From the NCBI GenBank assembly GCA_050251815.1, contig JBFWMB010000005.1, positions 17,787 through 81,786 of the forward strand: a DNA stretch of 64,000 nucleotides. The letters run 5' to 3'. Origin of the DNA: Salinivirgaceae bacterium (lineage in GTDB: Bacteria; Bacteroidota; Bacteroidia; Bacteroidales; SZUA-534). The notes under the pieces were generated by a model, which saw only the letters and a list, made by a program, of their open reading frames with translations, was not told where the DNA came from and did no database searches. The stretch's first letter is position 1; every line of letters begins with the position of its first letter. This document shows positions 17,186 through 46,074 of the stretch, in pieces. Made by a program: the position numbers and the translations under genes.

Positions 17186-18178
17186 ATGAGATTCTTACTT
17201 ATAACCCTGATTGTACCTATTTTAATAAGTAGCTGTACCCAAAAACCCACGTACATAAAAAACGAAGGGTATGTTTTTGGAACTACCTATCATTTTACTT
17301 ACGAAAGCCAAACCAATTACGAACCGGAACTTAAAGCACTTTTGAACGAATTTAACCGCTCGCTGAGTACATACGACCCAAATTCCATCATTAGTCGCAT
17401 AAATAAAAACGATACCACCGTGGTTGCCGATTCGTTCTTTATGCAATGCTTCGAAAAGTCGATGGAGATTTCTAAAATCACCGATGGGGCTTTTGATTTA
17501 ACCGTGGCTCCTGTGGTTAATGCCTGGGGTTTTGGTTTCGATGAATCGAAAAAAGCCGACTCAGCACTTATTGACAGCCTGATGCGCTCTGTGGGTTACG
17601 AAAAAGTAGTGCTTAAAAATAAAAAAATAATCAAGCAATTTGCGGGAACCATGCTCGATGCAAGCGCTGTTGCCAAAGGTCAGGGCGTTGATGTAGCCGC
17701 TGGCTATCTCGAAAAACAAGGCATCCTGAATTACATGGTCGAAATTGGTGGCGAGGTTCGCGTAAAAGGAACCAATGCAAGCGGAACCTACTGGAAAATC
17801 GGAATCGACAAACCCATTGAAGACCCTACGGCAAGTAATCGGGAATTGCAGGATGTTGTATTACTCACAAATAAAAGCATGGCCACTTCGGGCAACTACC
17901 GGCAATTTTATGAAAAAGACGGGATGATTTATTCGCACACCATCAATCCTAAAACCGGTTATCCGGCCCGTAACAGTTTATTAAGTGCATCGGTAATTGC
18001 TGCTGATTGCATGACTGCCGATGCCTTTGCTACCGCCTTTATGGTGATGGGCATCGATAAAAGCATTGCTTTAAGCAAAGACCTCGATTACCTGGAAGTG
18101 TATTTTATTTATGCCGACTCAAGTAATACCATGCAGACTTTTGCATCGGAAAAGTTTAAGGAGCTTATTGCAAGGTAA
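17186..18178 (+). CDS. apbE: FAD:protein FMN transferase ApbE (lipoprotein)
   Basis: Lipobox ISSC, GAFDLTV, AKGQGVD, EIGGE, ATSGNY, HTINPKTG and ADAFATA motifs; directly after nqrF. Confidence 0.95.
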   Translation: MRFLLITLIVPILISSCTQKPTYIKNEGYVFGTTYHFTYESQTNYEPELKALLNEFNRSLSTYDPNSIISRINKNDTTVVADSFFMQCFEKSMEISKITDGAFDLTVAPVVNAWGFGFDESKKADSALIDSLMRSVGYEKVVLKNKKIIKQFAGTMLDASAVAKGQGVDVAAGYLEKQGILNYMVEIGGEVRVKGTNASGTYWKIGIDKPIEDPTASNRELQDVVLLTNKSMATSGNYRQFYEKDGMIYSHTINPKTGYPARNSLLSASVIAADCMTADAFATAFMVMGIDKSIALSKDLDYLEVYFIYADSSNTMQTFASEKFKELIAR

Positions 18179-44076: not shown

Positions 44077-45201
44077 GTGAAAATTAGTTCAAATTTTGAT
44101 GGTGGAAATATTGAAGTGCTTAGTATAAATGACCACACCAATATTCAATTAAAAATAAGTAAAGACACCCATGCTGATTATTTTCAGTGGTTTTATTTTC
44201 GTCTTCAGGGAGCTGAGGGCTATCCCTGTAAAATGAAAATCGTAAACGCCGGCGAAGCTTCATTCCCCGAAGGATTTGAAAACTATTACGCCCGGGCATC
44301 GTACGACCGGGTAACCTGGTTTCAGATACCAACAAACTTCGATGGAAAAACACTAACTATCGATTTGATGCCCAAATACAATTCGGTGTATATCGCTTAT
44401 TTTGCACCATTTAGTTACGAACAACACCTCGATATGGTTCATCAGGCGCAATTGTCGCCACGTTGTGTTTTAACCAGCCTGGGTGATACGGTAGAAGGTC
44501 GCGATATCGACTTTTTAATCGCTGGTGAACCCGCCCCAAATAAAAAGAAAATCTGGGTAATTGCGCGTCAGCACCCGGGCGAAACCATGGCCGAATGGTT
44601 TATGCAAGGTTTTATAAATCGATTGCTCGACAGCGATGATCCGGCTTCCATACAACTACTCAATAAAGCAGTATTTTATTTGGTGCCTAACATAAATATC
44701 GATGGCAGCATTCACGGAAATCTCAGAGCCAATGCCAAAGGCATTAACCTGAATCGCGAATGGGCTGAACCTAGCCTGGAAAAAAGTCCGGAAGTTTACT
44801 ATATAAAAAATAAGATGGAAGAAACCGGAGTCGATCTTAATCTTGATATTCATGGTGATGAAGGATTGCCTTATGTTTTTCTTTCAGGTATTGAAGGAAT
44901 ACCCTCGTACGATGCAAAACTGCAACATTTAACTGAAAAGTTTTCAAATACCTGGAAGCAAATAAGTCCCGATTTTCAGGATGTAGAAGGCTATCCGAAA
45001 AACGAACCCAAAAAAGCCAACCTGGCCATTTGCTCAAAAAATATTGGTGAACAATTTAAATGTCTTTCACAAACTATTGAAATGCCTTTTAAACAAAACA
45101 ACAATATTCCAGACCCAATTTTTGGTTGGTCCCCCGATCGTTCCGAAAAGTTGGGTGAGTCGCTAATAAACACCTTACTTTTAATGGTCGATGATTTGTA
45201 A
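44077..45201 (+). CDS. M14-type cytosolic zinc carboxypeptidase
   Basis: ISSNFDGGN, QWFYF, ARQHPGE, GNLR, NLNR, DIHGDE and EMPFK motifs. GTG start. Confidence 0.9.
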   Translation: MKISSNFDGGNIEVLSINDHTNIQLKISKDTHADYFQWFYFRLQGAEGYPCKMKIVNAGEASFPEGFENYYARASYDRVTWFQIPTNFDGKTLTIDLMPKYNSVYIAYFAPFSYEQHLDMVHQAQLSPRCVLTSLGDTVEGRDIDFLIAGEPAPNKKKIWVIARQHPGETMAEWFMQGFINRLLDSDDPASIQLLNKAVFYLVPNINIDGSIHGNLRANAKGINLNREWAEPSLEKSPEVYYIKNKMEETGVDLNLDIHGDEGLPYVFLSGIEGIPSYDAKLQHLTEKFSNTWKQISPDFQDVEGYPKNEPKKANLAICSKNIGEQFKCLSQTIEMPFKQNNNIPDPIFGWSPDRSEKLGESLINTLLLMVDDL

Positions 45202-45374
45202 TTAATTTTACAATATAATTAACCAAGTTACGACTATTAAAAAAACAACAAATAATTACTTACGGTTTAGGGAAAACATATAATGCACAAACTAAAAACA
45301 GAAAACAACTTGAATTAAAAATCAGCTAACCAGTACCTGTAAAAAACAAAATTGAAAAAAAAGATCAATTAAAA

Positions 45375-45403
45375 TGTAACAAATTGAACTTCATTGCGTT
45401 TAA
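45375..45403 (+). promoter_or_regulatory. Putative ECF-sigma promoter (TGTAAC-N16-CGTTTAA)
   Basis: AAC-N16-CGT spacing typical of ECF promoters. A twin motif lies at 57687-57715 on the minus strand. Confidence 0.45.
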
Positions 45404-45463
45404 TCTACAAGTTAATTGACATTTTTAAATTACATTTCAAAGCCAATAATACATATTTATGTT

Positions 45464-45480
45464 TTGGCATTGTTTTTGAT
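45464..45480 (+). promoter_or_regulatory. Putative sigma-54 -24/-12 promoter (TTGGCATTGTTTTTGAT)
   Basis: TGGCA at -24 and TTGA at -12 with 12-nt spacing between GG (45466) and GA (45478). The -12 has GA instead of the canonical GC. Confidence 0.55.
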
Positions 45481-45490
45481 ATTAAAGAAT

Positions 45491-45621
45491 TAATCAGGTA
45501 CGTAATCTTTAAATAGTTGTTAAATGTTGTTTGTTGTTATACCATTCCTCTGGTAAAGAAAATCATAAATACTACCTGATTATTACACGAAAAGCTTTCT
45601 CCCCGAAAGCTTTTCTTTTTT
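45491..45621 (+). ncRNA. Candidate structured small RNA
   Basis: Perfect 10-bp closing stem TAATCAGGTA/TACCTGATTA, an internal UUGUU-rich loop, a TACCA/TGGTA hairpin, then a terminator. It starts about 12 nt after the sigma-54-like site. Confidence 0.5.
45589..45621 (+). terminator. Intrinsic terminator
   Basis: GAAAAGCTTTC-tcccc-GAAAGCTTTTC followed by T6. Confidence 0.85.
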
Positions 45622-45720
45622 AATTTACTAATGAAATAATCAATTCATCTTTTGTTAACATTCCGATAAAAACCAACTAATCTTAAACCGGTTTCTTTGT
45701 TCCAAACAAAAAAAGAAACT

Positions 45721-46074
45721 ATGAATTCAAAACACTTTACATCTTTCTTACTTTTACTGGTTTCATTCAGCCTAGCTCTTTCCGCCAAAAACAATCCAAC
45801 CAGGATTTATGGAACAGTGCAGGAAAACAATGAAGGAAAAACACAAGCCGTGGCTTTTGCTTATGTTTATATCGAAAACTCAACCTACTGTACCTATACC
45901 GACAGCGATGGAAACTTTGAAATGGAAGCACCATCAGGTACCCACACCCTGAAAGTTGTTTTTAAAGGATATAAAACGGCGGAACAAAAAGTAAAACCAG
46001 GGAACGACAAAGAGCTTAAGGTTACTCTTCAGCCCGAAGCTCCGACTTTTGCTGAAAATATCTCAGTTAACTAA
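45721..46074 (+). CDS. Standalone secreted carboxypeptidase-regulatory-like (CarboxypepD_reg) domain protein
   Basis: Signal peptide, then I.GTV......VAFAYVYI......TDSDGNF......G...L.V.F.GY motif. Confidence 0.8.
   Translation: MNSKHFTSFLLLLVSFSLALSAKNNPTRIYGTVQENNEGKTQAVAFAYVYIENSTYCTYTDSDGNFEMEAPSGTHTLKVVFKGYKTAEQKVKPGNDKELKVTLQPEAPTFAENISVN

Follow-up and report, generated by a model that had tools for sequence, protein, structure and literature searches.

What does a gap of 519 nucleotides (nt) between two protein-coding genes hold, in a genome from a family of uncultured Bacteroidota, and could it be a regulator that the lineage makes under stress? The gap lies in a stretch of 64,000 nt (hereafter the window; positions 17,787 to 81,786 of contig JBFWMB010000005.1, assembly GCA_050251815.1) from a Salinivirgaceae bacterium, whose 4.36-Mb genome we call G000, and an earlier note on the letters of this window had proposed that a gene-free gap of about 520 nt there carries a structured small RNA (sRNA) behind a sigma-54 promoter. 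The first half of our question has a clear answer: judged from the comparison of genomes, the gap holds a free-standing gene, whose product of about 130 nt belongs to a genuine and new family of sRNAs found in one Salinivirgaceae clade. The second half takes longer, and only part of it can be answered firmly. The gene, its structure, its conservation, its promoter-like motifs and a conserved complementarity to one messenger RNA (mRNA) are our observations; how the RNA is switched on and what it does to that mRNA are matters of graded confidence. Window positions are used throughout for the sRNA locus, all of whose parts lie on the plus strand.

A small RNA gene and its relatives

The gap runs from the end of an M14 carboxypeptidase gene (44077-45201) to the ATG, at 45721, of a small CarboxypepD_reg-like gene (45721-46074). 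The predicted transcript occupies 45490-45621, from a start placed at about 45489-45492 by the geometry of a -24/-12-type element to the U-tract of a terminator. Its outer stem, P1, has a 5' arm at 45491-45504 and a 3' arm at 45570-45582; the core is a perfect complementarity of 10 base pairs (bp) between 45491-45500 (TAATCAGGTA) and 45573-45582 (TACCTGATTA), lengthened across a C bulge by GTA (45502-45504) facing TAC (45570-45572). Within the loop lie a single-stranded, U/G-rich seed region (45510-45539) and a small hairpin, P2 (45540-45555; TACCA at 45540-45544, a ttcctc loop, and TGGTA at 45551-45555), and P1 is followed by an intrinsic terminator (45589-45621) with an 11-bp stem (45589-45615), a 5-nt loop and a T6 tail. 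A short open reading frame (sORF) of 10 codons, MLFVVIPFLW (45524-45556), overlaps seed and hairpin and is probably not a gene, its frame not being conserved. Each of these elements, promoter-like motif included, is where the earlier note had placed it.

Folding of the 134-nt stretch gives -30.7 kcal/mol, where 200 dinucleotide shuffles average -15.6 ± 2.9 kcal/mol (z = -5.2), and since none of the 200 is as stable, we regard the structure as above chance. It resembles nothing catalogued: Rfam 15 gave no match at the gathering score anywhere in the window, and in E-value mode the region 45150-45760 drew four matches, all with E of at least 1.3 and scores of 12.6-23.4 bits where gathering would have required 49-55, and three of the four sit on the terminator hairpin. 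A DNA search of 41 related genomes returned full-length matches to 45462-45617 in 11 genomes from four genera of one family, plus a partial copy at a contig end in G020, and a covariance model built from the 11 full-length homologues scores 127-153 bits at one copy per genome in 11 of the 33 family genomes. Two other genomes, G042 and G044, match the model at 35.5 bits with the terminator present and the seed missing, and for want of the seed we do not count them as homologues. Among 185,579 species genomes the exact loop 21-mer occurs in only 10, all of them metagenome-assembled genomes (MAGs) that are labelled Salinivirgaceae, Bacteroidales, Marinilabiliales, "Bacteroidetes" and, in one case, Rikenella microfusus. 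Metagenome contigs contribute two further variants, which brings the set to 13 distinct homologues, all from Salinivirgaceae-type MAGs or metagenomes, the DNA occurring in landfill, sludge and wastewater; two of the seven metagenome pattern matches (L128 and L131) were discarded as low-complexity GT-rich DNA that the covariance model does not match.

It is in this set that the fold finds its best evidence. Across the 13 homologues 97% of cells are paired, and 9 of the 27 modelled pairs change on both sides with pairing kept, where 500 column shuffles give 5.2 ± 1.1 (none of the 500 reaches 9) and slid controls give 0-2. These changes fall in P1 (5 of 12 modelled pairs, 95.5% of cells paired) and in the terminator (4 of 11, with every cell paired); P2 is paired in 94% of cells and none of its four pairs covaries, so that the comparison neither proves nor disproves it. 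The G-U pairs in the stems are compatible with the plus strand only, and a run of 26 nt (45513-45538) is invariant. As for the surroundings, the locus always follows a SpoIID-like or an M14 peptidase gene (M14 carboxypeptidase at 5 of the 11 loci), and at four of the 11 (G003, G007, G014 and G016) the next gene downstream, TolC-like, is convergent; because a convergent gene follows directly there, the RNA is neither a leader nor a 3' untranslated region (UTR). Much of what the earlier note had supposed is thus upheld: a separate structured sRNA gene, here with conserved promoter-like elements and a terminator of its own, outside any known RNA family, and with homologues and covariation, two things for which it had advised to look.

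The neighbourhood has some features of its own. The gene directly downstream, at 45721-46074, encodes a secreted protein of 117 amino acids (aa) with a single CarboxypepD_reg-like/PEGA domain, which is also what the N-terminal extension of SusC proteins is made of; the gene begins 100 nt downstream of the sRNA in G000 and is found at only three of the 11 homologous loci (G000, G001 and G004). Two relatives have insertions of mobile type next to the sRNA, G009 a HigB-like toxin gene (L006) and G005 an AbiEi antitoxin-type regulator (L003), and the intergenic site seems to tolerate such arrivals without losing the sRNA.

Promoter-like elements before the gene

Directly upstream, at 45464-45480, stands TTGGCATTGTTTTTGAT (TTGGCAT-TGTT-TTTGAT), which we read as a sigma-54-type -24/-12 promoter-like element, with TGGCAT at 45465-45470, its GG at 45466-45467 and TTGA at 45476-45479. 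All 13 homologues keep TGGCAY-N5-TTG at fixed spacing, 22-26 nt before position 1 of the model, with A as the next base in 12 and G in one; between the halves, four to five bases differ from homologue to homologue. A sigma-54 promoter is expected to have GG at -24 in a TGGCAC-like context, which is what TGGCAT (TGGCAY in 13 of 13) provides, and with GG at -24 the predicted +1 falls on the first base of P1, so transcription would begin at the foot of that stem. The machinery is there as well: rpoN, whose presence the earlier note had wanted confirmed, is encoded in G000 (a Sigma54_DBD match of 174.6 bits in a 495-aa open frame) and in 32 of the 33 family genomes, including all 11 that carry the sRNA, and G000 has four enhancer-binding proteins with Sigma54_activat matches of 230-244 bits.

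What gives the element its meaning, in our opinion, is the company it keeps. In G000 this motif also precedes hsp20, htpG, dnaK, lon, a thioredoxin gene, grpE and clpB, at a distance of 43-83 nt from the ATG, and groES2 has TGGCAC-N5-ATGA. The element upstream of dnaK is matched by a strict regular expression in 17 of 30 relatives across the order and by eye in all 30, the other 13 having close variants at the same place, mostly TGGCAY-N5-TTG followed by T or G; one dnaK orthologue reads TTGC in place of TTGA. According to PMC12316311, predicted sigma-54 promoters in Bacteroidota are enriched before the orthologous groups of GroEL, IbpA, GroES, GrpE, DnaJ, DnaK and HSP90 and likewise before those of proteases that depend on ATP (COG0542, COG0466, COG1066), and the same text cites Sabree et al. 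2009 for sigma-54-dependent grpE and groES. We read the element as a lineage-typical sigma-54-type promoter because of this heat-shock gene context, the enrichment in PMC12316311, and the presence of rpoN with its activators; from sequence, then, the promoter would group the sRNA with the proteostasis genes, and its dependence on sigma-54 is something that we infer.

The chaperone and protease genes deserve a description in their own right. In G000, dnaK, htpG, hsp20, lon, trx, grpE, clpB and groES2 form a coherent set with a TGGCAN-N5-TTGA-type motif, at C9:2470, C40:15225, C6:4840, C115:4170, C11:34612, C42:10832, C58:13037 and, on C6, upstream of groES2. Many of these heat-shock promoters are preceded, another 35-60 nt upstream, by TGTCA direct repeats (period 8 nt) that could serve as an activator site, and dnaK and htpG share CCCGAAAT directly after the motif. 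Elsewhere in the genome (G000:C7:26850-27250 and G000:C130:2075-2480) are two copies of an element that starts gtgcctaacagcttt-TTTTGGCATGT..TTTG[AC], a sigma-54-like motif, and continues into an ORF-poor stretch with repeated 'cccatcatt(a)at' units; an Rfam search of it gave no match, and it may represent a repeat element or else one more non-coding transcript of the sigma-54 type.

A second element lies further upstream. Promoters for extracytoplasmic function (ECF) sigma factors have 'AAC' at -35 and 'CGT' at -10, separated by about 16 nt, and the bipartite element at 45375-45399 (TGTAACA; AAC at 45378-45380, 16 nt, CGT at 45397-45399), roughly -113 to -90 relative to the predicted sRNA start, has this form, as the earlier note had also seen. 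AAC-N16-CGT is exact in 11 of the 13 homologues, the other two having GAC-N16-TGT and AAC-N17-CGT, and the sequence between the halves is not conserved. A scan of G000 for [GT]TAACA-N15-CGT gave 11 intergenic sites, among which there was no coherent regulon and no autoregulated or cognate sigma gene. The element could be an ECF promoter that gives a second, longer transcript, of about 210 nt and with its start near 45407-45412, or it could be the site of an enhancer-binding protein. We also considered PM2, a non-canonical Bacteroides promoter described as having near-palindromic -10 and -30 boxes, and it does not fit the sRNA element.

A predicted target in a susC leader

If the RNA acts by base pairing, on which mRNA does it act? 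Here the genome offers one candidate that stands apart. Twenty-two nt of the sRNA (45510-45531) are perfectly complementary to G000:C1:18369-18390, positions -43 to -22 in the leader of a gene for a 1105-aa SusC-like protein (G000:C1:15030-18347, minus strand), which is followed by a SusD-like_2 gene. The complement of this 22-mer occurs once in the 4.36 Mb; no other stretch complementary to the sRNA exceeds 16 nt, a length equally reached by a reversed-sequence control. The DNA search with the sRNA window also returned the exact 22-nt leader match in genome after genome. An orthologous leader with the site is present in 10 of the 11 sRNA-bearing genomes, from four genera, exact in eight and variant or internally duplicated in G009 and G011, and duplexes between each genome's own sRNA and own leader have predicted energies of -28 to -38 kcal/mol. 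Family genomes without the sRNA have the orthologous gene with a leader that lacks the AACAACAUUUAAC part. Structure prediction leaves the site unpaired in the mRNA and gives the seed in the sRNA an unpaired probability of about 0.2-0.8. A stand-alone gene, a terminator, a conserved and predicted-accessible seed, and a conserved complement in an mRNA encoded elsewhere are the marks of a base-pairing sRNA; of the earlier note's idea of pairing, the part that survives is a single specific and conserved 22-nt target, and the part that does not is its location, which is on another contig and not among the leaders of the window.

The closest solved structure to the target SusC is BT_2264 (E = 1.3e-118), whose complex is thought to import peptides, and genes for histidine degradation (FTCD, amidohydrolase) lie beside it. 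The target protein, a large TonB-dependent outer-membrane importer, probably imports peptides. Partial complementarity to the seed is also present in a second SusC-like gene (G000:C12) and in the gene of an M4 protease secreted by the type IX secretion system (T9SS) (G000:C21). The latter (G000:C21:8275-11703) encodes 1143 aa with a thermolysin-like M4 domain, GEVED and fn3 domains and a T9SS sorting tail; the partly complementary stretch in its leader, UUAACAACAACUGUUUAACAACUA, lies about 23 nt before the AUG, and the gene is found in only 4 of the 33 family genomes.

The target gene is itself a mosaic. Between G000 and its congener G001 (loci L066 and L070; G000:C1:15030-18750) the 400 nt upstream are 98-100% identical and the first 100 residues 100% identical, and identity then drops to about 35-40% through plug and barrel; across genera the first 400 aa are from 56% to 80% identical in a manner unrelated to kinship. 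A conserved 5' regulatory and N-terminal cassette thus seems, from these sequences, to be retained through exchanges of the barrel. Between genera the leader varies hardly at all along its length, and an AU-only hairpin (UAAAUUU...AAAUUUA) is predicted around the start codon (G000:C1:18300-18370); independently of the sRNA, it could respond to temperature or to a factor. In G009 (L065) and G011 (L063), which stand for two genera, an A/C-rich unit of the leader, AACAAC-A-TT-AACAAC, is tandemly duplicated, which creates extra partial registers for sRNA binding.

Weighing the readings

How might these pieces work together? We think it reasonably probable that induction of the sRNA accompanies that of the stress regulon and that its pairing with the susC leader reduces the synthesis of SusC and SusD, and we infer both the inducing signal and the negative sign of this regulation. 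The RNA would be transcribed, from the foot of its outer stem, by the type of sigma-54 promoter (TGGCAY-N5-TTGA) that the lineage appears to use for dnaK, grpE, clpB, htpG, lon and hsp20, and the ECF-type element about 75 nt upstream may bring in a second, envelope-stress input. The covarying outer stem of 12-13 bp would close a loop that presents the invariant 26-nt U/G-rich tract and the small hairpin, with the terminator after it, and the loop would pair over 22 bp, without a mismatch, with the leader of the conserved BT_2264-like susC/susD mRNA (positions -43 to -22). That duplex would lower synthesis either by blocking ribosome loading on an unstructured, A/C-rich leader or by serving as a substrate for RNase III, so that less of a bulky beta-barrel protein would be supplied during folding or envelope stress. 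RNase III and one RRM_1 protein are encoded in G000, where Hfq was searched for and not found, and both are possible cofactors. The boldest form of the proposal, in which this is the first sigma-54-dependent regulatory RNA in Bacteroidota, a non-coding arm of a sigma-54 proteostasis regulon and a counterpart of sigma-E with MicA and RybB, whose unusually long 22-bp duplex, under folding or envelope stress acting through a sigma-54 activator and an ECF sigma factor, switches off a conserved BT_2264-like SusC/SusD peptide importer, one that retains its 5' regulatory cassette through recombination of the barrel, we consider less likely than not.

A number of our own results weigh against this proposal, at the promoter as well as at the target. 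At the promoter, the 10-bp spacing to the -12 half holds in all 13 homologues and the C of the canonical GC (TTGCW) does not, the half reading TTGA, or TTGG in one homologue; of the -24/-12 element that the earlier note had seen, conservation and fixed spacing stand and the canonical TTGC does not. The motif occurs 18 times in G000, about what composition would predict by our own estimate, with eight of the 18 sites intergenic, a modest excess over the 0-6 intergenic sites of the other 19 combinations of spacer and final base; because there is no genome-wide over-representation, the significance of the motif rests on its conservation and on which genes follow it. The TGTCA repeats of the heat-shock promoters are not conserved before the sRNA, which may therefore answer to a different activator and signal. 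Among the sequencing runs listed for the locus none was truly of RNA: two compost runs labelled 'TRANSCRIPTOMIC' (X19 and X20) yielded one or two short contigs each (151 and 166 nt) covering 45456-45599 and 45364-45529, promoter DNA included, and these runs are flagged as probably DNA and speak neither for nor against expression. On the side of the target, G003 has the sRNA and no leader site was found in it, in an assembly of 780 contigs and 90% completeness. Ranked by duplex energy alone, the susC leader comes second among 3326 ORF starts, and short complementary seeds number 587 in the genome against 840 for the reversed control, which is no enrichment; since neither energy rank nor short seeds single the target out, the case for it rests on the length, uniqueness and conservation of one site. 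Since 21 nt separate the end of the duplex from the AUG, which places it beyond the footprint that the 30S subunit usually has, repression cannot be taken for granted and activation is a possibility. Finally, with the seed invariant, no covariation between sRNA and target can be counted, and sRNA and site co-occur within one clade, whose related genomes are not independent.

It is the promoter that gives the strongest of the rival readings its opening. The sRNA may be real and not be transcribed by sigma-54, which we consider unlikely and still worth serious attention: the TTTG would be the 3' half of a -7 box for the primary sigma factor, which in Bacteroidota reads TAnnTTTG, and TGGCA a regulator site, or else all transcription would come from the ECF-type promoter as a precursor of about 210 nt. 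Such a reading accommodates the missing GC at -12, the distance from TTTG to the predicted start, which suits a -7 box equally, the conserved AAC-N16-CGT in 11 of 13 homologues, and the chance-level count of sigma-54-like motifs. It has more trouble, however, with the 'TA' of the -7 box, which by our reading is present in only one of nine distinct spacer variants; with the lack of a conserved -33 TTTG 19-21 nt upstream; with an invariant TGGCAY that keeps a fixed 5-nt distance and is exactly a -24 element; with the same bipartite motif before at least seven chaperone and protease genes; and with the dnaK orthologue that has TTGC for TTGA. Transcription from the ECF-type element alone is opposed by the 65 nt between that element and TGGCA, which are conserved neither in sequence nor in length, as one expects of a spacer and not of RNA.

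Suppose instead that the sRNA and its target are correctly identified and that the sign is wrong. Activation of susC/susD, by protection of the 5' end from decay or by remodelling of the weak AU hairpin at the AUG, in response to a nutritional signal (nitrogen or peptide limitation, through an NtrC-type activator), is in our estimation unlikely and yet a contender; sigma-54 regulons are often nitrogen-linked. A duplex placed close to the mRNA's predicted 5' end, and not within the core ribosome-binding window, would suit it, as would the predicted hairpin that holds the start codon; a BT_2264-like target beside FTCD and amidohydrolase genes, an M14 carboxypeptidase gene before the sRNA at 5 of 11 loci, and the missing heat-shock-type TGTCA repeats would all suit a nutritional signal. 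A perfect 22-bp duplex is, however, a textbook substrate for RNase III, which the genome encodes, the target site is already predicted to be unpaired and so offers no obvious inhibitory structure to open, and the only experimentally studied cases of an sRNA acting on susC, in PMC11697453, are repressive. Less probable still is the protein sponge that the earlier note had suggested and for which we find no positive support: the repeated UUGUU/GUUGUU units of the loop would titrate an RNA-binding protein such as an RRM-type Rbp, with the complementarity to susC incidental or secondary. One RRM_1 protein is encoded where Hfq was not found, and RbpB of Bacteroides thetaiotaomicron binds sRNAs of the FopS family (PMC11697453), but short repeated motifs usually suffice for a sponge, yet 26 consecutive nt are invariant here, and a unique 22-nt perfect complement kept in 10 genomes of four genera is hard to explain without pairing. 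We would be most surprised of all by an RNA that serves as messenger for MLFVVIPFLW, alone or in a dual function, or as a cis-acting leader or 3' UTR of a neighbour. The sORF does exist at 45524-45556 and the small CarboxypepD_reg-like gene does begin 100 nt downstream in G000, but only 6 of the 13 homologues keep the 10 codons, the other seven having 11-18 codons with frameshifted, unrelated tails, and the first five codons are simply the invariant seed; the frame not being conserved, the dual-function RNA raised by the earlier note is unlikely. A leader for the downstream gene is at odds with its presence at only 3 of 11 loci and with a convergent next gene at four, and a 3' UTR with an upstream gene that differs (SpoIID-like or M14) while the promoter-like elements of the RNA stay conserved.

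We return, then, to a stress-induced RNA that would lower SusC/SusD synthesis, and it has several parallels. MicA, RybB and MicL are sigma-E-dependent sRNAs that repress porins in Enterobacteria, and Qrr1-5 with LuxO, GlmY, CrcZ and NrsZ are sigma-54-dependent sRNAs of Proteobacteria. Beside the former stand FoxI and FoxJ of Fusobacterium, named in PMC13750123. The likeness that we draw with these is that a stress sigma factor driving quality-control genes would also drive an sRNA that stops the synthesis of an abundant outer-membrane beta-barrel, whereas here the factor would be of the sigma-54 type, perhaps with ECF input, and not RpoE alone, no Hfq was found in G000, and one dominant target with a long duplex is predicted in place of many with short seeds. 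The link between Qrr, LuxO and sigma-54 is reported for Proteobacteria, and the Qrr-type sRNAs share with ours a -24/-12-type element directly before a short structured RNA with an intrinsic terminator, so that an enhancer-binding protein would set the signal; they differ in phylum, in having no homology of sequence or structure with it, and in the -12 half, which is TTGA here.

Closer to home, PMC11697453 describes how FopS sRNAs of B. thetaiotaomicron repress the translation of susC by pairing in its 5' region. Like FopS and GibS (PMC11697453 and PMC7366714), which pair with the 5' end of polycistronic mRNAs from polysaccharide utilization loci (PULs) and susC genes and repress SusC-type transporters, the present RNA would be an intergenic, trans-acting sRNA of Bacteroidales in a host that lacks Hfq and has RRM-type RNA-binding proteins. 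As described there, FopS comes in 14 copies with a canonical primary-sigma promoter and GibS has a 'PM2' promoter, where our sRNA is single-copy with sigma-54-type and ECF-type elements; FopS uses a short seed at the translation initiation region, where ours would form a perfect 22-bp duplex that ends well before the AUG; and the hosts are gut Bacteroides on the one hand and Salinivirgaceae MAGs on the other. The relation is one of functional analogy only, and the families are set apart by their descriptions and not by a comparison of sequence. The sigma-54 heat-shock regulon of PMC12316311 is the remaining parallel, with the motif of the sRNA being that before dnaK, grpE, clpB, htpG, lon and hsp20 in G000, gene classes that it reports as enriched for predicted sigma-54 promoters in Bacteroidia and Flavobacteriia; that work is a prediction for protein-coding genes by position-specific scoring matrix (PSSM), names no sRNA in its accessible part, and concerns genes whose promoters in G000 often have the TGTCA repeats that the sRNA promoter lacks. 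Our literature search, with subscription journals and supplements outside it, found no paper on an sRNA in Salinivirgaceae and no sigma-54-dependent sRNA for Bacteroidota.

Why should such an RNA be of interest, given the limited reach of something that is restricted to a single clade of uncultured Salinivirgaceae? Functions are known for very few sRNAs in Bacteroidota, all of them from gut Bacteroides, and the sensing of heat and envelope stress in this phylum and the role of sigma-54 there are largely predictions. Against this background the locus is a compact and testable circuit, whose promoter is of a type that chaperone genes also have, whose sRNA shows covariation in its fold, and whose one unambiguous mRNA target encodes a major TonB-dependent importer. 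If the proposal is true, the TTGA variant of the -12 element would become open to experiment, and the rule by which stress sigma factors employ sRNAs against outer-membrane protein synthesis would reach to a phylum without Hfq or envelope control of the RpoE type.

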